DNA of 34,680 nucleotides. Source: Candidatus Woesearchaeota archaeon. Lineage in GTDB: Archaea; Nanobdellota; Nanobdellia; SCGC-AAA011-G17; GW2011-AR17. The stretch spans positions 1-34,680 of the forward strand of contig CAYYMN010000006.1 of assembly GCA_964473075.1 (NCBI GenBank). The letters run 5' to 3'. The position numbers and the translations under genes were made by a program. The notes beneath the pieces were generated by a model, which saw nothing but the letters and a program-made list of their open reading frames with translations, ran no database searches and was not told the origin of the DNA. Positions within the stretch are counted from its first letter, which is position 1. Every line of letters begins with the position of its first letter. Of the stretch, positions 957 through 24,590 are shown piece after piece.

Positions 957-1622
957 ATGGATAAGAAGGAAATATTAGAAGCAATAAAAGAACTGAGAAA
1001 GGAAGAGCATAAAAAGAAGTTCACTCAGAGTTTTGATTTTCAAGTAAGAATACAGAGTTTAGATTTAAAGAAACAAGAGAATAAAGTTGATGTTTTTGTA
1101 GACCTACCGCATGGCAGAGGAAAGAAAGTTTCTGTGTGCGCATTAGTTGGCGGGACCTTGTATAATGATGCGAAGGCTAATTGTGACAGGACGATTGTGC
1201 AAGATGAGTTCAAAGCAATGGCTGGAAACACCAAAGAGCTGAAAAAATTAGCCAGAAGTTATGATTTCTTTGTTGCACAGGCAGATATCATGGGATTAGT
1301 TGCAGGGACCTTTGGAAGATTCTTAGGACCAAAAGGAAGGATGCCGAACCCAAAGGCAGGATGTGTTATTCCACCAAAAGGAAATGTTAAATCAATTGTT
1401 GAGAAACTGCAAAAGACGATTAGATTAATTGTGAAAAACAATGAGCCTGCAGTAAAATGTGCCGTGGGAACTGAGAAGATGTCCGATGAGCAAATTGCTG
1501 AGAATACTTTAGCTGCATACAATGCTTTACTACAAACATTACCACAGCATGAGCAGAATATCAAGAATGTTTATTTAAAATTGACAATGAGCAAGCCATT
1601 AAGCATAGGAGGGAAAAAATGA
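957..1622 (+). CDS. rpl1: 50S ribosomal protein L1 (uL1)
   Basis: 221 aa with typical uL1 sequence. GGAGGGAG lies upstream of the ATG. It is the first gene of the conserved archaeal L1-P0-P1 operon and its stop overlaps the next start (ATGA at 1619-1622). Confidence 0.9.
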   Translation: MDKKEILEAIKELRKEEHKKKFTQSFDFQVRIQSLDLKKQENKVDVFVDLPHGRGKKVSVCALVGGTLYNDAKANCDRTIVQDEFKAMAGNTKELKKLARSYDFFVAQADIMGLVAGTFGRFLGPKGRMPNPKAGCVIPPKGNVKSIVEKLQKTIRLIVKNNEPAVKCAVGTEKMSDEQIAENTLAAYNALLQTLPQHEQNIKNVYLKLTMSKPLSIGGKK

Positions 1623-2473
1623 GTAAACCCCAAGCCTATGTAAGTGAGAAAAAGAAAACCATTGTTCAACAATTATCCGCAGATCTTGAAAAATTTAATA
1701 TCATTGGATTAGTGAATATGGAAAATTTGCCGGCACCACAGCTGCAAAAAATGAAGCAGAACTTAAGAGGGAAAATTGAGATCCGGATGACTAAAAAGAA
1801 TTTGATTAAGTATGCATTGAAGAATTCCAAAAAAGATTTGAGTAAGCTTATTGAAGCAATTCAAGGGATGCCAGCATTGCTTTTGACTAATGATAATCCA
1901 TTCAAATTGTATAAGATAATTTCAGCGAACAAAAGTTCTGCACCTGCAAAACCGGGACAGAAATCACCAAGAGATATTATTATTCCTGCGGGAAAGACGC
2001 CTTTTGCACCAGGACCAATTATTGGAGAACTTGGACAGTTGGGAATTAAGACTGGGATTGAGGATGGGAAAGTTGCGATCAAACAAGAAAAGTTGGTTGT
2101 GAAAGAAGGGGAAACTTTTACACCAAAAATATGCGGGTTGTTGACCAGATTGAACATACAGCCGATGGAAATTGGATTGAATATTGTTGCAGTATATGAA
2201 AATGGGGTTGTGTTTGATAGGAAAGTATTGGAAGTTGATGAGAAAGTTTATTTACAGAACCTCAAACAATTACACAACGAAGCCATGAACTTAGCTGTGA
2301 AGATTGGTTACACAACAAAAGATACAATAAATGTATTAATACATAAAGCTCACAGAGATGCATCAGCAATTGCAGATTCAAAAAATATTATGACCAGTGA
2401 GAACATTGGAAAAATATTGGCGAAAGCAGAAGCGCAGGCTGAAGCGGTGAAGGATGAAGCTCATATTGAGTAA
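1619..2473 (+). CDS. rplP0: 50S ribosomal stalk protein P0 (uL10)
   Basis: 284 aa with an archaeal P0-type N-terminal domain. It sits between L1 and P1 and has the ATGA overlap with rpl1. Confidence 0.9.
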
Positions 2474-2487
2474 GGAGGATAATAAAA

Positions 2488-2781
2488 ATGGAATATATCT
2501 ATGGGGCTCTATTGCTCTACAAAGCAGGAAAAGAAATAAATGAAGCTAATGTTAAGAAAGTGCTTGAAGCTGCAGGTATCAAAGCAGATGAAGGCAGAAT
2601 CAAAGCGTTAGTCGTGGCATTAGATGGGGTTAATATCGAACAAGCTATCAAAGAAGCAGCAGTTGCTACAGTTGCAGCGGCACCAAGTGCTGGACCTGCA
2701 CATACAGTGGCTAAAAAAGAAGAAAAGAAGGAAGAGAAAAAAGAAGATGCTGCTGTTGGTTTAGGAGCATTGTTCGGATAA
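2488..2781 (+). CDS. rpl12: 50S ribosomal stalk protein P1 (archaeal L12)
   Basis: 97 aa. It starts [10 protein letters not shown], has an Ala-rich hinge and the [20 protein letters not shown] stalk tail. AAGGAGG lies upstream. Confidence 0.9.
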
Positions 2782-2784
2782 GAA

Positions 2785-2815
2785 AGTAATTTTTTTATTA
2801 TTTTATTTTGTTTGT
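2785..2815 (+). terminator. oligo-T tract downstream of the L1-P0-P1 operon
   Basis: A T7 run and further T-rich runs follow immediately after the rpl12 stop. Archaeal transcription terminates at oligo-T. Confidence 0.35.
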
Positions 2816-2879
2816 ATTTACTATGAAGTAATTAATGAACTAATAGTTTTATAAATAAGTTATGTTTATTCAATATAAA

Positions 2880-3239
2880 ATGGTAAATGTTATTGTTGCT
2901 GATGATATAGATAGTTGGAGAGAAATGTATATTGATATATTACAAGAAGCTTTTCCGAATGTGTCTGTTGATGCAGTTAGTAATGGGAGTGACTTGGTTG
3001 CTCGTGTTTTATTAGGAAATTATTCTGTAGTGATTAGCGATAATGATATGGAAAAACCAAATGCTGGATTAGAAGCTTTGAGAACACTTCGAACATCTGG
3101 AAATAATGTTCCATTTTACTTATTAAGTGGAAAGAGTATTAGAGAAAAAGTTCTATAGGCTGGAGCAAATGAATTTTATAACAAAGAAAATTTTGATGCT
3201 GATAAAATAATGAAAGACATTGCAAGATACATAGAATAA
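2880..3239 (+). pseudogene. CheY-like response regulator receiver domain interrupted by one in-frame TAG (3156-3158)
   Basis: The translation is MVNVIVADDID...VVISDNDM...YLLSGKSIREKVL, then TAG, then AGANEFYNKENFDADKIMKDIARYIE and a TAA at 3237-3239. The acidic pair, the phospho-acceptor Asp and the Ser/Thr lie before the TAG. The conserved GA..F/Y..K lysine motif lies after it, in the same frame. Confidence 0.6.
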
Positions 3240-3317
3240 ATTTTAGGAAAATCAGTTGCCAAAAGCTTTTTAAAGAAGGAGATTTTCAGAGAATAAATTA
3301 ATTAGGTGTTGGTTCTC

Positions 3318-4175
3318 ATGGGTGAGGAAGAAAAGAATAATGAAATAATGGATGTTAATGCTTTGAAATCAAAGTTAGATTTACTTAATTCTGAAAAAGA
3401 GAAATGGTTCGCGAGGAAAGAAGAACTTAAACAAAAGATTGCGGACCTGATCAAAGAAGTCAGAGCTGTAAAAGCAAAGAATGAGGAGTTTGGTTCTAAT
3501 ATTAGAGAATTAAAAGAAAAAAGGGATGCGCAGAATTCTGAAGTCCGGAAGTTAATTGACCAGATCAAAGATGTTAATCAAAAGAAAGGGAAGCAGTTAG
3601 ACATCAAGGATCCCGAGGCATTAAAGAATAGAATTGGACAGTTAGAGACAAAAATAGAAACAAGTGCAATAAGCTTTGATGAAGAAAAAAAGATTATGAA
3701 GCAGATTAAAGAAACTAAGAAATTATTAGAAAAGGCCAAAGTTGATGCTGAAGTGCACAGAGAGGCTTCTGAGATTTCTAAAAAAATTAATGTAGAAAGG
3801 AGAAAAGCAGAGGAATTTCATTCAAAAATTAATGATACCGCCAAAGAAAACAAGGATTCTTTCAAGGAGTTCACTAGAATCTCCAAAGAAATCAACAGGG
3901 TTAAAAAAGAACAAGAAGAAGCCTTTGAAAATTTTATCAAATTCAAACAAGAGTTTTCTGAAATAAATAAGAAATTAAAAGAGGAAATGAAAAAAGAAGG
4001 AAATGTTAAAAGAGAAGTCAAGAGAAAGAGAGAAAGAAATGCAAGAGTAAAAAAAGAAATGAATATCAAAAAATTAGAAGAGAAAAAAGAGAAAGTTGAA
4101 GAAAAACTAAAGAGTAAAAAAGTTCTGACCACCGAAGATTTGATTGCATTTCAGGGTGAAAACAATTTAGATTAG
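3318..4175 (+). CDS. K/E-rich coiled-coil protein (archaeal COG1340-like)
   Basis: A ~285 aa continuous heptad-like K/E-rich sequence. Its size and composition resemble the conserved archaeal coiled-coil family. The ATG at 3318 is preferred over the GTG at 3306. Confidence 0.45.
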   Translation: MGEEEKNNEIMDVNALKSKLDLLNSEKEKWFARKEELKQKIADLIKEVRAVKAKNEEFGSNIRELKEKRDAQNSEVRKLIDQIKDVNQKKGKQLDIKDPEALKNRIGQLETKIETSAISFDEEKKIMKQIKETKKLLEKAKVDAEVHREASEISKKINVERRKAEEFHSKINDTAKENKDSFKEFTRISKEINRVKKEQEEAFENFIKFKQEFSEINKKLKEEMKKEGNVKREVKRKRERNARVKKEMNIKKLEEKKEKVEEKLKSKKVLTTEDLIAFQGENNLD

Positions 4176-4697
4176 TGATTTTATGTCGCTATAGATTGGA
4201 ATAGATTTAATTTTATATGCTTCTACAAGGAAGATCCAAACAAAGACAATGAATATTGTTGAGATTATGTGCCAGAAAATCAAATGCACAGCAGCAAAGT
4301 AGTTCCTTCCAAAGTTTAGATAAATAAAAATTAGAATCAGGATTCTCAATAAATTCATAATAAAGATCATTACAGAACCTAGAAAGAAAAGTTTTAAGGA
4401 TTGGATTAAAGAAATATTTCTGGTCAAAAGGATTAATTCTAATAGAAGGATATAAGCCAAAAGGGCTGTGCATGCGGGAATGATCGTGAATGAAATATTG
4501 TTTATTGATATTGTTGTGTTGTTTAATACTGGTTCGAGGAATATATCTAGGATAAAATAAGTGAAGGATAAAGTTAATGGAAGAAGCAGGAATGATAAAT
4601 ATGAAGAGAAGATTGCTATTAAGAACGCGAGTGGATAACGCAGGAGTATTGATTTCATAGGCGAAAAGAAGTTTATCCAAATTATAAAGATTGACAC
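4167..4697 (-). CDS. mini exosortase/archaeosortase-like polytopic membrane protein
   Basis: 176 aa with about 5-6 hydrophobic helices. Cys76 (IIPACTAL), Arg118 in an N-x-x-R context (MNLLRI, 42 residues after the Cys) and His138/143 (AAVHLIFWH) match the order of the exosortase-family Cys/Arg/His motifs and the Cys-to-Arg spacing. It directly abuts the giant surface protein gene. Confidence 0.45.
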   Translation of the reverse strand: MSIFIIWINFFSPMKSILLRYPLAFLIAIFSSYLSFLLLPLTLSFTYFILDIFLEPVLNNTTISINNISFTIIPACTALLAYILLLELILLTRNISLIQSLKLFFLGSVMIFIMNLLRILILIFIYLNFGRNYFAAVHLIFWHIISTIFIVFVWIFLVEAYKIKSIPIYSDIKSLI

Positions 4698-7600
4698 TTA
4701 AGCAGTTATTGCTTCATAAACAATGGTTATTGATTTTGCACCGGCTGTGGAATCCTTAGGGAAATATAATTCTATAAAAGTTCTGACTTGATCAGTTGAA
4801 TCCGAGGAGCTTAGGCTATTGCAAACTGCTCTTGTTGAGTTGCTATTATGAGTTGCAAGTATTCCATAATCATCCAATCCAGTACAAGAACCTGTTTCAT
4901 TGTTTTGGGAAATTATTGCAATCCTTGCCAAAGCTGTCAAAGTGCAACCCTGTGAAGAGCCACAAAAAGTTTCCTCGGCATCTGTTACTAATGCATAAGC
5001 AGTTACATTAACATTGACTGTGCCATTGTTTGTGATCAAGTGAACATCATTGTTTGGGAAAGCGGTAGTATTGATCCAACAATTGTTGCTAATGTTTGAA
5101 TTCATTAATGCATAATTATCTGTGCAGCTAGCATTATAGTATCCAGAGCCAAATGCAATCGTGTTATCATCCAAAGTTATACCAACTACTGAAGGAGTAC
5201 TAACTATACTTGAATTCTGAATAGAAACTTCTTGATTATCGACTATATTTATTACAAATGAAGCTAATTTTCCTGCTGCATCCGTCAGTCGATTACTATC
5301 CAAAACAAGATTATTATAAACATCATAAGAACTTGAGACAGCTAGACCAGTAGCATTAATTGTTCCTTGAAGCAAATTATTATTCGTCTGGTCAGTCCAG
5401 TTTACTGAATTCTGAGTAAAAGAGACATTGACAGTTTTATTTACATTTATACTTGCATTCAAACTATAATCTGTGTTTAAAATAATAGCACCATTAGTCA
5501 CAACAACTGACAGATTTCCCAAGCCTGCACAATTAGTCCCAGAAGGAGATTGACAGATGAATAAGCTACCTATGCTTCCAGACTTACTACTTCCTCCAGG
5601 AGAAGCACCACCAGAAACATTTATACTTCCAGTGAAAGTTGAAGTTTGGTAGTACAAAGCAATCCTTCCTCCGCCACCAGCAGCATTAGAAGTAACTGAA
5701 CCCCCTTCAGCTTCAATAACTCCATTCCCAGTTAATGTATTGACAATCAAATAAACACTGCCACCAGAACCGCCACTATTAGATCCAATTAAAGTAGCAT
5801 TTGAAGCTATTATTCCATTGTTAGTTAATGTTCCAGAAACATTCAAAAAGATTGCACCGCCACCATCAGTTTTTGCAACACCGCCACCAGAACCAATTTC
5901 TAAAGGTCTAGTCAGGCTATCATAAACGCCATTAGCCATTGCAGAAGTTGTGTTACCACCAAGACCACCATGCGAAGCACCTTTAGCTGTTGAGGTACCT
6001 GGAGCTGGACCGGAAAGAGTTCTATAACCTTTTTTAGTTGTATCAATTTTTGCACCACTATTAATTGTAAAGGTTGATGCAGAGAGATTTATAATATTTA
6101 ATTGGACAATGTTATTTTGATCATGAGTTAAATCACCACCAGAATTCAAAGTCCAGTTTGCAGTGGGATTAAAAGTATAATCATTACTTAAAATTAAATT
6201 GCCATCTATTGTAACAGTCTGCAAATTAGGGAATTGTAAACTTGCATTTTGGAGCCAGATAGAAGGGGTGTTTAAATCAATAATTGTTGAGCTCACATTA
6301 AAAGGAACTTCTTGAATAAAATAAGCACCATTCTCAATAGTTAAATTATCCAAGTTTGTCAAAGAAATAAAAGTGCTGTTTACATGAGTTGTTGCCATAT
6401 TAGAAAAATTACCATTTTTAATAAGCAATTGACCATTTAAGTCAGAATTAACTTTTAAGAAAATAGTACCAGCACCACCGGATTCATCAGTGGCATATCC
6501 GCCAGAGGCATTTATTGAGCCAGTATAAAGATAATTTGGAGAGTAAACTGCGATCCTGCCACCAGCACCAGCATCATTAGTAGATGCCAAGCCTCCATGT
6601 GCATCAATCTCTCCATTACCAGAAAAATTACCCGCAACTAGATAGATACTACCGCCAGAACCAGTACCATAACCGCCAGTAACATGAAGACTACTAGAAG
6701 TAATAATTCCATTATTAATCAAAGTATCAGTTATATTCAAAAATATTGCACCACCGCCATCAGTTTTTCCAATGCCACCACCAGAACCAAGGTCCAACGG
6801 GGCAGTTATTGAGCCATATTCTAAACCACCAGCAGTACTACTAGTTCCACCCATACCTCCATACCCTGCACCATGAGTACTAGGCGCAGCAGCTAAAGAC
6901 CGACCAGGACCATTTAAAAAAGCATAACCTTTATTAGTTGCATTAATCATTGCGCCACTATTGATTGTGAAATTCTTTGCAGTAATGTTCAAAAAGTATA
7001 ATTGTGTAGCAGAGTTGTTCCTGTGGGATAAATTTCCAGCAGAGTTCAAAGTCCAGACTGCAGATTTATTAAAAGTATAATTTGACATTAATTCCATTGT
7101 ACCAGCTAGAGTCACAATAGATAGGTTACTAGCATTAAAGTTTCCTTGCTGGAAAAAGCCACAACCGGAGTTTAATTCAAAAATATTATTACTAATATCC
7201 AATGAAGTTGTTAAATAAACATTTGCATTATTAGTGATATTAAGTTCATCAAGAGTTGTTAATACTAAGAATGTTGAATTCAATTCACTCCTAGCAGAAG
7301 AAGTCCTATTGGCATTATCAAAGATTAAAGAACCATTAGACTTTGCAGAAGATTTCAAGAAAATTGTTCCAGGGCCGCCAGCAGCAGTAGTTCCCTGACC
7401 ACCAGAGGCGTTAATTATTCCTGTGAATGTGTTTGTAGTAGAATAAATTGCAACCCTTCCGCCAGAGCCACCGCCTACGGCTGCAGAAGCTGTACCACCA
7501 ATGGATTCAATTGTTCCAGAACCTGAAAAAGTACTCGCAATAATATAAATTGAACCGCCAGAACCGCCACTAGTAGCTGCTGTGTATGTAGCATTTGAAG

Positions 7601-8420
7601 AAATAACTCCGTTATTAGTTAGAGTTCCAGAGGCATTCAAAAACATTGCACCACCACCAGCAACCCCAGTTCTAGCTGTAGATGAACCGCCACTGCCCAA
7701 AGTCAATGGATACTCGATGCTTCCATAAGGAGATTTAGAAGCGCCTGCACCAAAGGAAGCATAGGAAGCGCCAATAGCAGTACTAGTTGTAAGACCTGGA
7801 CCTTGCTTTGAAAGGAAGCCAAAACCTGAAGAAGAGATTATTCCACCAGAATTGATTGTGATTGTATCTGCTGTAACATTAATACTTGTATTGCCTGCAG
7901 CAGTAGAGTTTAATTTCAATATACCACCACTATTAATTGTAATATTTGAGCACACCATAGTTGAATTACCCCAGACTAAACTACTGCTTAATGTGAAGAT
8001 TCCATCTGTAGAGGGACAGGAAGGATAATCTAAAATTGTTGCAGAATCATCCAATGTTCCTATGGAATCAACAGATGTATATCCTGTATAGGCACTAAAG
8101 GTAATTAATGAAATTGAAAATAAAAGAATTAATAAGGTTAATATTGTATTCTTAGGAATTGAAGGTTGTAAATTTTTTAATTCATTTTGATAATATTTTA
8201 TGCAATCATCATAATATGTAGTCCATTGCTTCAAAGTGCGTTGCTGTAAAACTTTATTCTTTGTTGCAAGATATTCTTTGTCTGATAGTTGATTTGATTT
8301 GTAAAGTTTATCTAAGTTTTTATTATATTCAATTAATGCAGATTTAAGTTTATTAGTATATTCTATAGCCTCGGCTAATTGTTTTTTCTTAAGTTCAGTT
8401 TTTGATATGTTTGATTTCAT
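4698..8420 (-). CDS. giant N-terminally anchored beta-helix-like repeat surface (glyco)protein
   Basis: A very long ORF (1247 aa from the TTG at 8441). The ATG at 8420 forms an ATGA overlap with the upstream gene stop. A ~95 aa K/E/Q-rich N-terminus is followed by one TM segment (ILTLLILLFSISLITFSAY). Three Gly-rich modules carry GGGAIFLN, GSGGSIYL, GGRIAVY, INASGG and GTIFLK motifs. I counted about 49 N-x-S/T sequons by hand. There is no C-terminal TM or sorting signal. Confidence 0.8.
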   Translation of the reverse strand: MKSNISKTELKKKQLAEAIEYTNKLKSALIEYNKNLDKLYKSNQLSDKEYLATKNKVLQQRTLKQWTTYYDDCIKYYQNELKNLQPSIPKNTILTLLILLFSISLITFSAYTGYTSVDSIGTLDDSATILDYPSCPSTDGIFTLSSSLVWGNSTMVCSNITINSGGILKLNSTAAGNTSINVTADTITINSGGIISSSGFGFLSKQGPGLTTSTAIGASYASFGAGASKSPYGSIEYPLTLGSGGSSTARTGVAGGGAMFLNASGTLTNNGVISSNATYTAATSGGSGGSIYIIASTFSGSGTIESIGGTASAAVGGGSGGRVAIYSTTNTFTGIINASGGQGTTAAGGPGTIFLKSSAKSNGSLIFDNANRTSSARSELNSTFLVLTTLDELNITNNANVYLTTSLDISNNIFELNSGCGFFQQGNFNASNLSIVTLAGTMELMSNYTFNKSAVWTLNSAGNLSHRNNSATQLYFLNITAKNFTINSGAMINATNKGYAFLNGPGRSLAAAPSTHGAGYGGMGGTSSTAGGLEYGSITAPLDLGSGGGIGKTDGGGAIFLNITDTLINNGIITSSSLHVTGGYGTGSGGSIYLVAGNFSGNGEIDAHGGLASTNDAGAGGRIAVYSPNYLYTGSINASGGYATDESGGAGTIFLKVNSDLNGQLLIKNGNFSNMATTHVNSTFISLTNLDNLTIENGAYFIQEVPFNVSSTIIDLNTPSIWLQNASLQFPNLQTVTIDGNLILSNDYTFNPTANWTLNSGGDLTHDQNNIVQLNIINLSASTFTINSGAKIDTTKKGYRTLSGPAPGTSTAKGASHGGLGGNTTSAMANGVYDSLTRPLEIGSGGGVAKTDGGGAIFLNVSGTLTNNGIIASNATLIGSNSGGSGGSVYLIVNTLTGNGVIEAEGGSVTSNAAGGGGRIALYYQTSTFTGSINVSGGASPGGSSKSGSIGSLFICQSPSGTNCAGLGNLSVVVTNGAIILNTDYSLNASINVNKTVNVSFTQNSVNWTDQTNNNLLQGTINATGLAVSSSYDVYNNLVLDSNRLTDAAGKLASFVINIVDNQEVSIQNSSIVSTPSVVGITLDDNTIAFGSGYYNASCTDNYALMNSNISNNCWINTTAFPNNDVHLITNNGTVNVNVTAYALVTDAEETFCGSSQGCTLTALARIAIISQNNETGSCTGLDDYGILATHNSNSTRAVCNSLSSSDSTDQVRTFIELYFPKDSTAGAKSITIVYEAITA
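5556..7862 (-). repeat. intragenic tandem repeats with a period of ~890-900 nt (~297-300 aa), 2.6 copies
   Basis: The motif (I/F)TINSG(G/A) recurs at aa 194, 491 and 791. The Gly-rich modules at aa 194-362, 491-662 and 791-962 align motif by motif. The N/T/L-rich spacers at 363-490 and 663-790 also align. Confidence 0.75.
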
Positions 8421-8881
8421 TTTCTGTTGTATGAAGTCCAAATGGTTCGTTCATTTTTTTTCAGTAATACACCAATATCATGATATGAAAGTGATTTGCT
8501 CTCGTGGAGATATTTGACAATAGTTTTCATAGGAGGGATTTTATCAGAAAAGATGTCTAGAGGGATTTGAAGTTCTGATTTTAGGGATTTTAATTTTGAA
8601 GGATATTTCTTTTTTGTATTAGTATAAGTGTGCCAGAGATTTTTTTCGTTGCGTTTTAGAATAAGAGAAATTTCATGCAGGGTCAGATCTTTTTCTTCTT
8701 TAAGATATTTTACGATTGATTCCAATGGTGTGAGTTTATTATTAAAAATTGAAATGGGAATAAAGGGTTTGTTTAAATCATCTAATAGTTGCTGCAGGTA
8801 TTGTTTGATTTGGGTTTCATTAAGGTTTAGGCGAGTCTGCAAAGTAGTAAGAATCTCATTAGAATAATTCACCCCTGGCAT
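8417..8881 (-). CDS. tandem helix-turn-helix protein (two sigma-70 region 4 / LuxR-like HTH repeats)
   Basis: 154 aa with an internal duplication: IPISIFNNKLTPLESIVKYLKEEKDLTLHEISLILKRNEKNLWHTY versus IPLDIFSDKIPPMKTIVKYLHESKSLSYHDIGVLLKKNERTIWTSY. Its stop overlaps the start of the giant protein gene (ATGA at 8417-8420). Confidence 0.5.
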   Translation of the reverse strand: MPGVNYSNEILTTLQTRLNLNETQIKQYLQQLLDDLNKPFIPISIFNNKLTPLESIVKYLKEEKDLTLHEISLILKRNEKNLWHTYTNTKKKYPSKLKSLKSELQIPLDIFSDKIPPMKTIVKYLHESKSLSYHDIGVLLKKNERTIWTSYNRK

Positions 8882-8985: not shown

Positions 8986-9456
8986 TTACTCAAAAGATTC
9001 TTCATCATTATTAGTTATAGAATGTAGTCTTCTTTCCTTAGGAACCATATTTCTTAGAACATTATTCCTTAAATTTCCACAGCCTAGAATGTCTTTATCT
9101 TGCTGGACAATAACATAACCTGAATCACCATCAAGTTGAATATCTTCACCCTTCATCCAGCTTTCTGCTTGAGATTTAGTTAATAAGATTATATTCTTTT
9201 TTGCTTGAATTAACTGAGAACCTTCAATAGAAAGTCTAAAACCATCATGTTCTCTCTTTCCGAAGTACATTCCTTGGTTGTTAACTCTTAAGCCAGTTAA
9301 ATCAATGTTAGCATAATCTTTACTCAAAAGAAAAATTTTGTTATCAGAAGCTTCAAAGAACAAAAAATCTAAATCTGCCTGAAAATCAAATTGTTCCTTC
9401 AACTGCAAAAATAATTCTTTCCTCTCGCGAGTGTTTAAAAATTTAACTTTGGACAT
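8986..9456 (-). CDS. NIP7-like pre-PUA/PUA RNA-binding protein
   Basis: I take the start at the internal ATG at 9456 (MSKVKFLNTRERKELF...). The track ORF extends into the divergent promoter. The GMYFGK...FRLSIEGS...GYVIV...ILGCG...NMVPKERR pattern resembles archaeal Nip7/PUA proteins. Confidence 0.5.
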   Translation of the reverse strand: MSKVKFLNTRERKELFLQLKEQFDFQADLDFLFFEASDNKIFLLSKDYANIDLTGLRVNNQGMYFGKREHDGFRLSIEGSQLIQAKKNIILLTKSQAESWMKGEDIQLDGDSGYVIVQQDKDILGCGNLRNNVLRNMVPKERRLHSITNNDEESFE

Positions 9457-9474
9457 GAATTGGAAATATGCACA

Positions 9475-9490
9475 GATATATTTATATATT
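9475..9490. promoter_or_regulatory. shared near-palindromic TATA element for the divergent NIP7-like and gltX genes
   Basis: GATATATTTATATATT is centred about 27-28 bp from both ATGs (9456 on the minus strand, 9511 on the plus strand). Neither gene has a GGAGG upstream. Confidence 0.4.
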
Positions 9491-9510
9491 CCTATTCTAA
9501 ATTTAAGAGT

Positions 9511-11148
9511 ATGGAGCAAGAGATTAGAAAGTATGCTTTGCACAATGCTTTGAAGTATAATGGAAAGGCTAATTCTGGGGCTGTAGTCGGGCAAATATTT
9601 TCTACTCATCCAGATTTGAAAAAGAAGGCTGGGGAGATTATCAAACTTGTGAATGAGATTGTTTTGAAAGTGAATAAACTCAATGTTGAAGAGCAAAAAA
9701 AAGAATTAAATAAAATTGCACCAGAATTATTAGAAGAAAAAAAAGAAAGAAAGAAAAAAGAATTGCCAGAATTAAAAAATGTCAAAGGAAAGGTTATTAC
9801 AAGGCTGCCACCAGAACCATCAAAGTATATTCATTTAGGGCACGCAGTTTCGTTCATAATTAATTATCTTTATGCGAAGAAGTATAATGGAAAATGTGTT
9901 CTGAGGTTTGATGATACGAATCCAGAAAAAGCTAAGAAAGAATATTATGATGCTGTTGAAAAAGATTTGAAGTGGTTGAAAATAGATTATGATTCAAAAA
10001 TTATTGCTTCTGAGCACATGGAAGAATTCTATAAATATGCAGAGCAGATGATTAAAAATGATGAGGCTTATGTATGCTTTTGTGAGAAGGAAACAATGAG
10101 AAACTTTAGAGAGAAGAGTAAAATCTGTGATCATAGGCAACATAAAGAAAAAGAGAACTTGGAATTTTGGAAAGGGATGCTGAAGGGGAAGTTTAAGGAG
10201 GGAAAAGCTACATTAAGGCTCAAAGGGGATATGAGTAATGGAAATGCGGTCATGAGAGATCCAGTTTTATTCAGGATTGTAGAGAAAGCGCATGCATTAA
10301 CAGGGAAGAAATACAAGGTTTGGCCAATGTATGATTTTGAGACAGCTGTCGGGGAGGAAATTGCTGGGGTCACGCATATTTTCAGAAGCAATGAATTCGG
10401 AGAGATGAGAATAGAGCTACAAGATTATATCAAAGATTTATTGAAGTTCAAGAAGCAAGAAGTGTTGCAGTATGGGAGAGTTTCTGTGAATGGGTATGAG
10501 ATGCAAGGAAGGGTGATGAAAGAAAAAATTGAGAGGAAAGAAGTTGAAGGATGGGATGATCCGAGGTTGATGACGATTATGGCGCTGAGAAGGAGAGGAA
10601 TAGTACCGGAAACCTTTCATGAACTTGCATTAGAAGCTGGATTGTCTGCTACGCCGACGAATTTAGACTGGAGTGTGGTTGCGGCGATTAATAGGAAGAT
10701 TATTGATCCAATTGCAAAAAGGTATTTCTTTGTGAGGGATGCAAAAAAAATTAAAATTGAAAATTCTGTGAATAGTGTGAAGGTGTCTGTGCATCCAGAG
10801 AATAAAGAGTTAGGAATGAAGACAATTAAAATTGGAAAAGAGTTTTATGTGCAGGATGAGATCAAGAAAGGGATTGTATACAGATTCATGCATTTGTTTA
10901 ATTTTAAAGATGCAAAGTTTGTTTCTCAGGAGTATGAACAGAAGTTAGGGGCGAAAATTATTCATGCTGTGCCTGTTGAGGATTCAATTGATGTCCAAGT
11001 ATTAATGGATAATGGAAAAATAATCAAAGGAAAAGGAGAAGGGGCACTTAGAGATTTGAAAGAAGGAGAAATTGTGCAGTTTGAGAGGATGTTCTTTGCG
11101 CGATTGGATGATAAGAAGAAAATGTTGTTTGTGTATGCGCATGATTAA
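9511..11148 (+). CDS. gltX: glutamyl-tRNA synthetase, archaeal/eukaryal type
   Basis: It has the class I HIGH motif (HLGHAV) and an archaeal GluRS-like N-terminus (IRKYALHNALKYNGKANSGAVVG). The ATG at 9511 is preferred over the track start at 9460. Confidence 0.85.
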   Translation: MEQEIRKYALHNALKYNGKANSGAVVGQIFSTHPDLKKKAGEIIKLVNEIVLKVNKLNVEEQKKELNKIAPELLEEKKERKKKELPELKNVKGKVITRLPPEPSKYIHLGHAVSFIINYLYAKKYNGKCVLRFDDTNPEKAKKEYYDAVEKDLKWLKIDYDSKIIASEHMEEFYKYAEQMIKNDEAYVCFCEKETMRNFREKSKICDHRQHKEKENLEFWKGMLKGKFKEGKATLRLKGDMSNGNAVMRDPVLFRIVEKAHALTGKKYKVWPMYDFETAVGEEIAGVTHIFRSNEFGEMRIELQDYIKDLLKFKKQEVLQYGRVSVNGYEMQGRVMKEKIERKEVEGWDDPRLMTIMALRRRGIVPETFHELALEAGLSATPTNLDWSVVAAINRKIIDPIAKRYFFVRDAKKIKIENSVNSVKVSVHPENKELGMKTIKIGKEFYVQDEIKKGIVYRFMHLFNFKDAKFVSQEYEQKLGAKIIHAVPVEDSIDVQVLMDNGKIIKGKGEGALRDLKEGEIVQFERMFFARLDDKKKMLFVYAHD

Positions 11149-21289: not shown

Positions 21290-21307
21290 TGTGTATCCTC
21301 CAAATTG

Positions 21308-21324
21308 AGTGTCTTTCTTACACT
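21308..21324. promoter_or_regulatory. candidate NrtR box 1 (AGTGT-N7-ACACT)
   Basis: AGTGTCTTTCTTACACT has perfect 5+5 inverted arms. It lies 19-35 nt upstream of the pncB ATG. Confidence 0.5.
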
Positions 21325-21390
21325 ATCTTGCCCCAAAAAAAATCCTTGGGTGATTTTGAAGTTTTGTTTTTTATATTTCATTTTTCTTTT

Positions 21391-21407
21391 AGTGTTTTTC
21401 TTACACC
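21391..21407. promoter_or_regulatory. candidate NrtR box 2 (AGTGT-N7-ACACC)
   Basis: AGTGTTTTTCTTACACC matches box 1 at 15 of 17 positions. It lies just upstream (in the pncB direction) of an AAATATAAAAAA TATA-like tract. Confidence 0.45.
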
Positions 21408-21412
21408 TTCTT

Positions 21413-21429
21413 AGTGTTAATACTACACT
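21413..21429. promoter_or_regulatory. candidate NrtR box 3 (AGTGT-N7-ACACT)
   Basis: AGTGTTAATACTACACT has perfect arms. It abuts the TTATATATAAAG TATA-like tract that faces the M50 protease gene, and its centre is 22 bp from box 2. Confidence 0.5.
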
Positions 21430-21493
21430 TATATATAAAGCTTTCGAAAGGAAAGGAATAAAGTTTAAAAAGGAAAAAACTAAAAGCTGTTTT

Positions 21494-22081
21494 ATGAGAA
21501 TAAAATTTTCAAAGACCGAGATACAAGATCTGGGAAAAGCATGGTTGTTTATCTCAATAGCCTTTGGAATAGTACTCTCAGGAGGGATTTTAGGAATTTC
21601 GTTATTGAAAAGTTTTATTCTCGCTGCGTTAACAGTAGGAACAGGATTCTTGTTGCATGAATTAGGGCATAAAATTGTTGCACAAAGGTATGGGTGCTTT
21701 GCAGAGTTCAGGGCGGATAATTTTATGTTGTTCCTGGCAGTTTTAACTTCATTCCTAGGGATTGTGTTTGCAGCGCCTGGAGCAGTAATGATTGCAGGGC
21801 ATATTAGTCGCGAGAGGAATGGGAAGATTTCGGTTGCTGGTCCTTTAGTGAATATTATTTTAGGGTTGATATTTTTAGCTCTAAGTTATATTGTAACTCA
21901 AGGATTCGTTAATGAGTTATTCATGTTTGGATTCATGGTAAATTCATGGTTAGCATTGTTTAATATGATACCTTTATGGATTTTAGATGGAAAGAAAGTT
22001 TTGGATTGGAATAAAGGGGTTTATTTTGTAATATTGTTGGTTGCAATAGGGTTGTTTGTAAAAGGGATTGTTTTGTTTTAA
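21494..22081 (+). CDS. site-2 protease family (M50) membrane metalloprotease
   Basis: It has HELGHK (HExxH) and a NMIPLWILDG (NxxPxxxLDG) motif in a polytopic membrane protein. The ATG at 21494 is preferred over the track start at 21305. Confidence 0.75.
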   Translation: MRIKFSKTEIQDLGKAWLFISIAFGIVLSGGILGISLLKSFILAALTVGTGFLLHELGHKIVAQRYGCFAEFRADNFMLFLAVLTSFLGIVFAAPGAVMIAGHISRERNGKISVAGPLVNIILGLIFLALSYIVTQGFVNELFMFGFMVNSWLALFNMIPLWILDGKKVLDWNKGVYFVILLVAIGLFVKGIVLF

Positions 22082-22919: not shown

Positions 22920-24590
22920 ATGGGGTTTATCAGTGCGTTCAAAAGATTTTCTAGATTGAGGGTGATAGTTGAACTATTGATAAAAGAAGGATTTGAAGAT
23001 GTTAGTTCAAGGTTGCATTTCAATACGCCAATTCATTTTGGGGAAAAATTAAATATCAAAGCAAAAAAGAATTTACAAGGAAATACTGCAGAGAGATTAA
23101 GGATAGTTTTAGAAGAAGCAGGCGGGGCGTTTGTAAAGTTGGGGCAGATGCTTTCATTGCGTTCGGATTTGATTCCACAAGAATATTGTGATGAATTCTC
23201 AAAATTGCAGGATGCTGTGAAACCTTTCCCTATGCATCAGGTTAGAAAAATAATCCAGGAAGAATTTGGGAAGCCAATAAATAGAATATTTGAGGAGTTT
23301 GATCCTGTGCCTATTGCAGCAGCGTCTGTTGGGCAGGTGCATAAAGCAAAATTGAAAAATGGAGAGATTGTTGCAGTTAAAGTTCAGAGGCCAGACATAC
23401 AAAAAGTGTTTGAAGCAGATATTGATTTGATGTATTACATTGCTGAAGAGGCAGGAAAGCATTGGCCAGACTTTAAAGCTTTCAAGCCAAAAGAGTTAGT
23501 GAAACAATTTGAAGAGTATACCAAGAAAGAAATGGATTATCTAACCGAAGGGAAAAATATTGAGGTTTTCTATAATCATTACAAATATCATTCACACATA
23601 AAAATCCCGAAAGTGTATTGGGAGTATACTACAAAAAGAGTGCTAACTATGGAATATATTGATGGAAGAAAGATTTCGGTCATTGATGATTTAGGAATTG
23701 AGCAGAAAAAAAAGATTGCAATGTTAGTTTACAAAAGCATGCTCACGCAGGTTCTGGAAATGAGAGTGTTCCATGCAGATCCGCACCCAGGGAATATATT
23801 CTGGACAAAAAATGCGAAAGTTGCATTCTTAGACTTTGGGATTGTTGGTAGGCTTTCTCCGGACATGGCAGAAAATGTTGAGCTTATGCTTGTTGGATTG
23901 GTTAAAGGGGATCTAGATTCTTTGGCACAAGGATTCATTGAAATGGGAGTAGTGGACGATATTGATGAAAATAAGTTCAAAGAAGATTTGTTTGAAGCCT
24001 GGGCAGAGTTCAAAGGAAGTTCATTGAAGCAAATGAATATGAAGAGATTCTTTGAGAATACTTTTAATCTTGCAAGAAAATATGAATTGAATTTGCCAAG
24101 CAATTTTGTTTTATTATCAAAAGCAGTTATTACAGCTGAAGCATTCGGGAAGCAATTGTATCCAAACTCGAACTTTGTTGAAGTGTGCCAAGATGAAGTT
24201 GATAAACTATTGAAGAAAGAAAGAGATCCGAAGATTGTTTATGGATCTTTGAAGAAAAAGTTCTTTGATATAGGAATTAATTTGAAAAGGTTCCCGGGAG
24301 ACCTGAGGAATATGATGAGAGTCTTGAGGAAAGGGACCAAAGTCAAACTCGAAATAGATCATAAAGAGTTAGGAGAATTGAATGAAGAACTAGATAAATC
24401 GAGCAAAAGGGTTACTCTAGGATTGATATTAGGAGGATTGTTAATTGCCACTGGATTGTTTACGGCAACCGGATTAGAACCAAAGTATTATAATATACCA
24501 TTGTTTGCTATAATTAGTGGGGGCATTACGATTGTGATGCTATTGATATTCATTATTTCAATGATGAAAAAAGGAGGGATGAAAGAATGA
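22920..24590 (+). CDS. ubiB: ABC1/UbiB-family atypical kinase with C-terminal TM helices
   Basis: It has the PIAAASVGQVHKAKLKNGEIVAVKVQRP motif, FHADPHPGNIF and DFG. Confidence 0.85.
   Translation: MGFISAFKRFSRLRVIVELLIKEGFEDVSSRLHFNTPIHFGEKLNIKAKKNLQGNTAERLRIVLEEAGGAFVKLGQMLSLRSDLIPQEYCDEFSKLQDAVKPFPMHQVRKIIQEEFGKPINRIFEEFDPVPIAAASVGQVHKAKLKNGEIVAVKVQRPDIQKVFEADIDLMYYIAEEAGKHWPDFKAFKPKELVKQFEEYTKKEMDYLTEGKNIEVFYNHYKYHSHIKIPKVYWEYTTKRVLTMEYIDGRKISVIDDLGIEQKKKIAMLVYKSMLTQVLEMRVFHADPHPGNIFWTKNAKVAFLDFGIVGRLSPDMAENVELMLVGLVKGDLDSLAQGFIEMGVVDDIDENKFKEDLFEAWAEFKGSSLKQMNMKRFFENTFNLARKYELNLPSNFVLLSKAVITAEAFGKQLYPNSNFVEVCQDEVDKLLKKERDPKIVYGSLKKKFFDIGINLKRFPGDLRNMMRVLRKGTKVKLEIDHKELGELNEELDKSSKRVTLGLILGGLLIATGLFTATGLEPKYYNIPLFAIISGGITIVMLLIFIISMMKKGGMKE

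Follow-up and report, generated by a model that had tools for sequence, protein, structure and literature searches.

Sortase and giant surface protein in a woesearchaeal locus: probably two independent units, one of them a widespread two-gene cassette

Genes that lie side by side on one strand do not necessarily act together, and this question is raised acutely by a 34,680-nucleotide (nt) stretch of DNA from a Candidatus Woesearchaeota archaeon (contig CAYYMN010000006.1 of assembly GCA_964473075.1, positions 1 to 34,680; hereafter the window). Three minus-strand genes follow one another there and encode a tandem helix-turn-helix (HTH) protein, a giant repeat-rich surface protein and a small enzyme of the exosortase/archaeosortase type. 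Do they form one unit, in which the enzyme matures the giant protein? A preliminary description of this DNA had taken them for a three-gene surface module and the giant protein for the obvious cargo of the enzyme. Comparison with genome and metagenome loci (labelled L001 to L072; the labels P0001 and P0113 denote proteins) points to a different answer. The sortase and the HTH-giant pair are likely two independent units, i.e., a housekeeping sortase with a presumed PACE-CTERM substrate and a putative signalling cassette, brought side by side in one small lineage by the loss of genes. Of greater interest in this interval is the latter, an unannotated cassette made of the HTH gene and of a gene for a giant protein headed by a conserved N-terminal module (the N-module).

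In the window, L001 and L027, the trio runs uninterrupted along a single strand. Searches with the sortase family retrieved 25 genome loci, additional ones being reached via neighbouring proteins, and among these 25 tblastn places the HTH and giant genes beside the sortase gene only in L001. Orthologues of the pair (43-45% identity, with the same N-module and C-terminal domain) occur in L030-L032 in a completely different neighbourhood, with a THUMP-domain gene after them and no sortase; in assembly GCA_030697685.1, the sortase gene (L033) lies on another contig than the pair, in its usual DUF7121-rpP1-rpL10-rpL1 setting. The adjacency of the trio, whose conservation in related genomes had been set beforehand as a test, is thus lost outside a very small clade. 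In L026 and L068, a gene of ~330-360 amino acids (aa) on the opposite strand stands between the giant-type gene and the sortase gene, the sortase of L068 being the closest relative of the window's enzyme (77% identity). This opposite-strand gene is homologous in L026, L068, L072 and L033 and absent from the window, L001 and L027. Because of this homology, it is best regarded as part of the ancestral backbone that was lost in the window, L001 and L027, and the tight packing of the giant and sortase genes as a secondary result of its deletion. Neither a pacearchaeosortase gene nor a PACE-CTERM gene is present in the 32 metagenome loci that encode an N-module. The cassette therefore occurs without the sortase, and the three-gene module is left unsupported.

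The identity of the small enzyme raises fewer difficulties. Its assignment to the exosortases/archaeosortases, originally made from the order of a Cys, an N-x-x-R and a His, is borne out by hidden Markov models (HMMs), as is the family name 'pacearchaeosortase' mentioned with it. The protein matches NF033505 at 115.5 bits (curated cutoff 80, E=2.5e-33), with residues 16-175 of the 176-aa open reading frame (ORF) aligned to positions 3-162 of the 167 in the profile, and the exosortase/archaeosortase signature TIGR04178 at 41.3 bits (cutoff 23) over residues 70-157. Its homologues form 56 clusters at 90% identity, several of which have already been named pacearchaeosortase by NCBI. The Cys, Asn-x-x-Arg and His are invariant across 28 homologues of 138-217 aa and correspond, in the 163-aa numbering, to Cys63 (4470-4472), Asn102 (4353-4355), Arg105 (4344-4346) and His125 (4284-4286), or to Cys76, N-L-L-Arg118 and His138 in the 176-aa numbering. 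The AlphaFold2 (AF2) model is a polytopic helical protein of roughly five helices (predicted local distance difference test score, pLDDT, 89.5; predicted template modelling score, pTM, 0.82); Foldseek returned no match to it in the PDB at E<=0.001, and no solved exosortase or archaeosortase was found there. Judged from the profile matches and the invariant residues, the gene at 4167-4658 is a bona fide member of an already catalogued family. Literature searches retrieved no paper on 'pacearchaeosortase' or 'PACE-CTERM', and the NCBIfam models alone describe the family.

A known relative is ArtA of Haloferax volcanii, which acts on PGF-CTERM substrates such as the S-layer glycoprotein and HVO_0405. 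ArtA cuts a signal composed of a motif, a transmembrane (TM) helix and a basic stretch, and lipid-anchors the new C-terminus; its critical residues are Cys173, Arg214 and Arg253 (PMC9263693). The Cys173-Arg214 spacing of 41 is confirmed by this source and compares with 42 residues from Cys to Arg in the window's enzyme. The two enzymes share the TIGR04178 superfamily signature and the presumed chemistry, i.e., cleavage of the motif-TM-basic signal followed by re-anchoring (PMC9263693, PMC6098224). They differ in that the window's enzyme is about half the size of ArtA, its third invariant residue is His125 whereas the third critical residue of ArtA is Arg253, and the substrate motif of the pacearchaeosortase family is not PGF.

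The junctions between the three genes also bear on their unity. The minus-strand ORFs are confirmed in the sequence at 8881-8417 (154 aa), 8420-4698 (1240 aa from ATG) and 4697/4658-4167, as is the ATGA in which the HTH stop and the giant start overlap. The overlapping or abutting arrangement of HTH and N-module genes recurs in 20 loci, and the overlap suggests translational coupling of the two genes. Nevertheless, the stretch is not packed without gaps, as had been proposed. The TAA of the giant gene ends at 4698 and is directly followed by a GTG at 4697, yet the sortase almost certainly begins at the ATG at 4658 rather than at this GTG, giving 163 aa, because the database copy (P0001) has 163 aa, all 27 aligned homologues begin at the equivalent of Met14 and the NF033505 alignment begins at residue 16. 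The supposed abutting of stop and start rests on that GTG and falls with it. The sortase gene is set off from the giant gene by a spacer in which a TATA-like box, TTTATAAT, occupies 4681-4688, 30 nt ahead of the sortase ATG. A TATA-like hexamer starts between -31 and -26 relative to this ATG in 20 of 28 sortase loci, the window included, and 29 of the 51 hexamer matches in these 28 loci fall in the -30 to -26 bin, compared with 0-5 per other bin. Since the position of the box is conserved, the sortase gene is probably transcribed from its own promoter into a leaderless or near-leaderless mRNA. A similar TTTATAAA lies ~30 nt upstream of the HTH gene ATG (upstream of 8881).

If the giant protein is not the substrate, what is? 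A partner family is catalogued in NCBIfam as NF033506, 'PACE-CTERM-PROT, putative S-layer protein'. In 17 of the 26 loci with sufficient upstream DNA, a protein of 446-675 aa is encoded 59-1914 nt from the sortase gene, on the same or the divergent strand. These 17 proteins are homologous to one another; they begin with a signal peptide and end with a TM helix and a basic tail (e.g., ...NTTLYIIVGILAVLILIILTVIVKASRRKVKPEF). All six that were scanned against NCBIfam match NF033506, five of them above the 110-bit cutoff (142-396 bits). Because the neighbours of the sortase match this model, the cognate cargo class can be considered already catalogued, with a canonical tripartite signal. The giant protein as cargo is thus not supported, and the alternative left by the preliminary description that is favoured by the evidence is that the sortase processes another substrate, of the PACE-CTERM class. 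With respect to this NF033505/NF033506 pair, the window's enzyme is full-length, of the same size, with the same invariant Cys, Asn-x-x-Arg and His and within the same DUF7121-rpP1-rpL10-rpL1 neighbourhood; the difference is that the slot upstream of it holds another surface-protein cassette, while the 17 other loci have PACE-CTERM 59-1914 nt away.

No NF033506-type protein is encoded in the 34.7-kb window, as judged from the family HMM run against the six-frame translation and from a scan for C-terminal TM helices. Only one protein of the window combines a basic tail with a C-terminal TM helix (22920-24590), and this is an ABC1/UbiB kinase, not a sortase target. Two other candidates near the sortase were set aside as cytoplasmic-looking, i.e., the 334-aa protein whose gene immediately precedes that of the sortase in L034 and the ~340-aa product of the opposite-strand gene in L026, L068, L072 and L033. 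In L006, a 616-aa protein (L006:5439-7289) encoded 2.7 kb upstream of the pacearchaeosortase starts with a signal peptide and ends in a TM helix, a Lys/Gly-rich basic stretch and ~20 more residues; the PACE-CTERM family HMM does not detect it, and it could be a divergent substrate.

The architecture of the giant protein itself is consistent with this reassignment. Several features that had been ascribed to it stand, namely a repeat-rich, sequon-rich surface protein held by an N-terminal TM helix (aa 93-111) behind a helical cytoplasmic N-terminus (aa 1-92), with no C-terminal signature-TM-basic sorting signal. Its three repeats are 37-44% identical to each other (E 1e-51 to 1e-69 by segment BLAST) and its ectodomain carries 49 N-x-S/T sequons, compared with 28 +/- 4.4 in shuffles. 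The distributions of positive-inside charges and of sequons place the N-module inside the cell. The repeats probably form a beta-helix ectodomain, as suggested by homologues named 'beta strand repeat-containing protein', which are widespread in bacteria and DPANN archaea, and by one of them (P0113) with Beta_helix/NosD Pfam matches. Neither a hydrophobic segment or TM helix nor a basic tail is present at the C-terminus, ...AKSITIVYEAITA, and the giant protein matches 0 NCBIfam families at E<=1, hence not NF033506. Outside the membrane, T-G-Y is invariant in 6 orthologues, and the juxtamembrane consensus across the wider family is P-x-(I/L)-T-G-(F/L). In the counterpart from L068 (L068:5686-8937, compared with 4698-8420 of the window), the N-module is 61% and the last 175 aa are 74% identical, while LamG domains take the place of the three repeats in the middle. 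As both ends are kept and only the middle differs, the ectodomain appears to be an exchangeable cassette that is swapped by recombination.

It could still be proposed that the trio works as a single surface module and that the giant protein is matured by the pacearchaeosortase through a non-canonical signal such as the juxtamembrane YTGY or P-x-ITGF. An invariant motif does sit where the giant's TM helix leaves the membrane on the outside, and ArtA also accepts a tripartite signal located away from the C-terminus (PMC9263693). However, the giant protein offers no motif-TM-basic signal in the required orientation, since its sole TM helix is oriented inside to outside; judging from the mechanism of ArtA, cleavage by a transpeptidase at this site would keep the cytoplasmic stub and release the ectodomain. 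Orthologous giants all finish in a conserved soluble domain. The contiguity seen in the window, L001 and L027 and the proximity of pair and sortase in L026 and L068 speak for a module, as does the lack of a nearby PACE-CTERM gene in the window's sortase clade; against this, the adjacency is broken in GCA_030697685.1 and interrupted by the opposite-strand gene in the closest relative, 32 N-module loci have no sortase, the sortase has its own conserved TATA box, and the N-module makes up 363 clusters at 50% identity compared with only 56 at 90% identity for the sortase. The giant protein is probably not sortase cargo, and a single functional module seems very improbable.

With the sortase set apart, the HTH gene and the giant gene remain as a pair. 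The first encodes, as had been recognised, a tandem HTH protein, with an internal repeat (41% identity over 58 aa, E=7e-18). Pfam Sigma70_r4_2 is matched by 13 of 14 members of this family (best E=4e-9), the window protein itself reaching E=0.008 only; in the L026 member, both repeats are matched (residues 63-113 and 130-174). Models of extracytoplasmic function (ECF) sigma factors are matched by 12 of the 14 members, in the sigma-4 part only (e.g., profile positions 117-161 of 165) and at 18-27 bits, compared with cutoffs of 43-323. An assignment of the protein as an ECF sigma factor (TIGR02937 and its subfamilies) was ruled out, as it has no sigma-2 domain and its scores are far below the cutoffs. 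The family profile detected nothing significant among PDB sequences.

The second gene is defined by its N-module. The first 120 aa of the giant protein, comprising the helices, the TM helix and T-G-Y, are conserved in all orthologues, and an exhaustive search with the N-module profile yielded 363 cluster representatives (clustering at 50% identity) at E<=1e-3, of which 82 reach E<=1e-10; a word-index search with the same profile gave one fragment only. Nearly all of the 150 listed matches lie at residues ~1-120 of proteins of about 50-3200 aa. The consensus reads ...LE.RK.EL...I....K.KI....L..Y..G.IS..EY...L...L..RT.EQWIKYYD..I.YY..., followed by the TM helix and the juxtamembrane motif given above. 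None of 11 members scanned has a Pfam or NCBIfam match, anti-sigma domains included, and the AF2 model retrieves only generic helical hairpins from the PDB with Foldseek (best E=0.74).

The association between the two genes is strict. The metagenome scan with the N-module gave 32 loci, which together with the window, L001, L026, L027, L030, L032 and L068 make 39 N-module loci. In 20 of the 39, the HTH gene lies directly upstream of the giant gene and usually overlaps it; in four others (L056, L059, L062 and L063), the HTH is fused to the C-terminus of the N-module giant. A sigma-4-like HTH, upstream or fused, is present in all 24 assessable loci; of the other 15, 14 end at a contig edge before the C-terminus and L046 is a 112-aa fragment. 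The fused giants, of ~950 to >2090 aa, continue through PW(V/T)I.., a second TM helix and a poly-Lys stretch into the tandem HTH (...DPNYPWVIGFAVLISINSKKKKKK-IPLSIF...). Gene fusion is a classic indicator of direct functional interaction and, because it occurs here behind a second TM helix and poly-Lys, the HTH and the N-module share the cytoplasmic side in one polypeptide. Going by gene order across these loci, the HTH gene plus giant gene is the actual unit, a widespread and so far unnamed two-gene DPANN cassette. In L051, a partial ORF (L051:213-1529) ends in a fused HTH and is directly followed by the next N-module gene, a layout that hints at tandem arrays and at fission as the source of the stand-alone HTH gene. 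Ahead of N-module giants that have no upstream HTH gene, there is a recurrence of genes for 290-330-aa proteins with a type-IV-pilin-like N-terminus (..KKGQA and a hydrophobic stretch) and a LamG-like C-terminal part; these pilin-like LamG proteins are found in L047-L049, L055, L057, L058, L060, L064, L066 and L067.

What could such a cassette do? The best working model, drawn by analogy, is a sigma/anti-sigma-like membrane-tethered pair, in which binding of the HTH protein by the N-module and a role in signalling are both inferred. In this first unit (8881-4698), the HTH protein would be made together with the type-II membrane protein, whose N-module would hold it at the membrane, and events at the ectodomain, such as contact with a host or surface, or proteolysis, would alter its availability for DNA binding. 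The second unit (4658-4167) would be a housekeeping pacearchaeosortase expressed from its own TATA box and, by homology, would act as a Cys/Arg transpeptidase that cuts the TM helix and basic tail off the C-terminus of a PACE-CTERM putative S-layer protein and then re-anchors the protein, the substrate gene presumably lying elsewhere in the genome, outside the window. For the sortase also, we infer chemistry and substrate in this organism by analogy.

The resemblance of the first unit to bacterial pairs of ECF sigma factors and single-pass anti-sigma factors lies in architecture and gene order. Both combine a small sigma-4-type HTH protein with a co-translated type-II single-pass membrane protein that has a ~90-aa cytoplasmic helical N-domain and a large extracytoplasmic domain, in the same gene order and with a stop/start overlap. 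They differ in that the archaeal HTH protein contains a pair of sigma-4-like domains but not sigma-2, with scores well under every sigma cutoff, the transcription of the archaeal host is of the TBP/TFB type, the N-module resembles anti-sigma domains neither in sequence nor in fold, and the ectodomains are giant adhesin-like arrays. A second comparison can be made with membrane-tethered transcription factors such as ToxR/CadC and those released by regulated proteolysis. In the fused forms of L056, L059, L062 and L063, a huge ectodomain is followed by a TM helix and, on its cytoplasmic side, by the tandem HTH, and an M50 site-2-protease-type peptidase is encoded in the window (21305-22081). However, the window's HTH is a separate soluble protein, and the fused HTH is C-terminal to the TM helix, compared with N-terminal in ToxR.

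Another explanation dispenses with signalling altogether. The N-module and TM helix might merely serve to export giant adhesins, as a long signal that is cleaved off or acts as an anchor, and the HTH-like protein might be a cytoplasmic chaperone or adaptor, or an ordinary autoregulator of the adhesin gene, not physically linked to the N-module. The family-wide P-x-I-T-G|F behind the TM helix agrees with the -3/-1 rule for signal peptidase I, yet the Y-T-G|Y of the window's subfamily is a poor signal-peptidase site. Adhesin-like ectodomains swap freely between relatives, the pilin-like LamG genes beside a second subgroup suggest a surface-structure locus, and the N-module shows no anti-sigma similarity, all of which suits an export device. 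Such a device would account less well for the fusions, which bring HTH and N-module together in the cytoplasm within a single polypeptide, and for the association in 24 of 24 loci with overlapping stop and start, which is tighter than expected of a generic regulator. We regard the export explanation as unlikely.

Several observations weigh against the proposal of a signalling cassette beside an independent sortase. In the window's sortase clade (window, L001, L002, L014, L026, L027, L033, L034, L068, L071, L072), no PACE-CTERM gene lies within +/-10 kb, PACE-CTERM adjacency being a trait of two of the three sortase clades; clade placement comes from a rough neighbour-joining tree, to which L068, L071 and L072 were added afterwards, outside the tree. 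Furthermore, the HTH-giant pair fills the slot next to the sortase in five of the ten loci of this clade, counted without L014 (the window and four of the nine related ones), beyond what a single accident would lead one to expect. A clade-specific change of substrate may thus be conceived, the topology of the giant protein counting against it. The TATA argument rests on sequence position in an AT-rich genome. As for the cassette, binding of the HTH protein to DNA and to the N-module is predicted, the HTH protein is devoid of a sigma-2 domain, the N-module has no detectable similarity to anti-sigma domains and, to our knowledge, archaea do not use sigma factors. The two-unit proposal nevertheless remains the likely one.

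A wider and more speculative reading would see in the HTH proteins and N-module giants an archaeal counterpart of sigma/anti-sigma or tethered-factor signalling, DPANN-wide, that couples contacts made by swapping adhesin-like ectodomains to gene expression; this is possible but, for the present, doubtful. Sigma-70-like genes have been described as prevalent in Woesearchaeota, with no anti-sigma factor (Castelle et al. 2021, PMC8204110). If the wider reading were true, the N-module could be the 'missing' partner of these genes, should their family prove to be that of the HTH protein. A literature search combining DPANN, sigma factor and surface protein retrieved no paper. It is much less likely that, as an extra twist, the pacearchaeosortase has been recruited to act on N-module giants in the clade that has no nearby PACE-CTERM.

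No new anchoring logic is needed at this locus, because both the sortase family and its substrate class are catalogued. The survey nonetheless yields genomic rules for the pacearchaeosortase, i.e., an rpL1-rpL10-rpP1 backbone, an own TATA box at about -30 and adjacency to PACE-CTERM in two of three clades. As for the cassette, it brings to light a large family outside Pfam and NCBIfam that heads many giant DPANN surface proteins. DPANN archaea are thought to live attached to hosts. The strict association with the HTH, fusions included, makes the cassette a concrete and testable candidate for a link between surface and transcription in DPANN cells. The features of the locus are collected in Table 1.

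Table 1. Coordinates of the features at the sortase/cassette locus (positions in the window)
Feature	Position	Strand	Remarks
Tandem sigma-4-like HTH protein, 154 aa	8417..8881	-	N-terminal ~40-aa region and two HTH repeats
HTH repeat 1, aa 41-92	8606-8761	-	
HTH repeat 2, aa 105-154	8420-8569	-	
ATGA overlap, HTH stop / giant start	8417..8420	-	read from sequence
N-module of giant protein, aa 1-92, cytoplasmic three-helix domain	8145..8420	-	AF2 pLDDT 80; helices 2-41, 47-58, 63-84
TM anchor, aa 93-111, and extracellular juxtamembrane motif YTGY, aa 111-114	8079..8144	-	
Three ~290-aa Gly/Ser/Thr/Asn-rich repeats, aa 130-420, 421-720, 721-1010	5391..8033	-	
Conserved Cys-containing C-terminal domain, aa 1066-1240	4701..5225	-	ends ...IVYEAITA
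Spacer, 39 nt, giant stop to sortase ATG	4659..4697	-	holds TATA-like box
Pacearchaeosortase, 163 aa	4167..4658	-	NF033505, TIGR04178, invariant residues, AF2 model
DUF7121 coiled-coil protein	3306..4175	+	Pfam DUF7121; converges on sortase, 9-nt overlap of 3' ends (4167-4175)
rpP1	2488-2781		conserved sortase neighbourhood
rpL10	1619-2473		conserved sortase neighbourhood
rpL1	957-1622		conserved sortase neighbourhood

The backbone around the sortase can be written as UbiB-M50-...-GluRS-PUA-[slot]-sortase-DUF7121-rpP1-rpL10-rpL1, the content of the slot varying among genomes; in the window, it extends over 957-4175 and 8986-11148. The DUF7121 gene, which runs towards the sortase gene and shares a few nt with its 3' end, is detected by tblastn in 13 of the 25 genome loci, and DUF7121 and rpL10/rpL1 flank the sortase in 12-13 loci, an arrangement also seen in loci retrieved later. 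Between rpP1 and DUF7121, the window carries an orphan 98-aa CheY-like receiver domain (2862-3158, plus strand; Pfam Response_reg, E=4e-9), and there is no gene at this position in the closest relatives L001, L027 and L068. The M50 site-2-protease-type peptidase (21305-22081) and the ABC1/UbiB kinase (22920-24590), both on the plus strand, have C-terminal TM helices. This pair stands beside the GluRS-PUA-sortase backbone in L034, L035, L071 and L072 but lies ~12 kb further off in the window, which indicates that the window lineage was rearranged. Rfam and tRNA scans of the whole window gave no matches. Finally, the low-GC sequence contains shadow ORFs at 8628-8867 (plus strand, antisense to the HTH gene), 4213-4680 (minus strand, another frame of the sortase gene) and 3818-4132 (minus strand, antisense to the DUF7121 gene), and in several related loci the antisense ORF was taken instead of the HTH gene by a greedy ORF caller.

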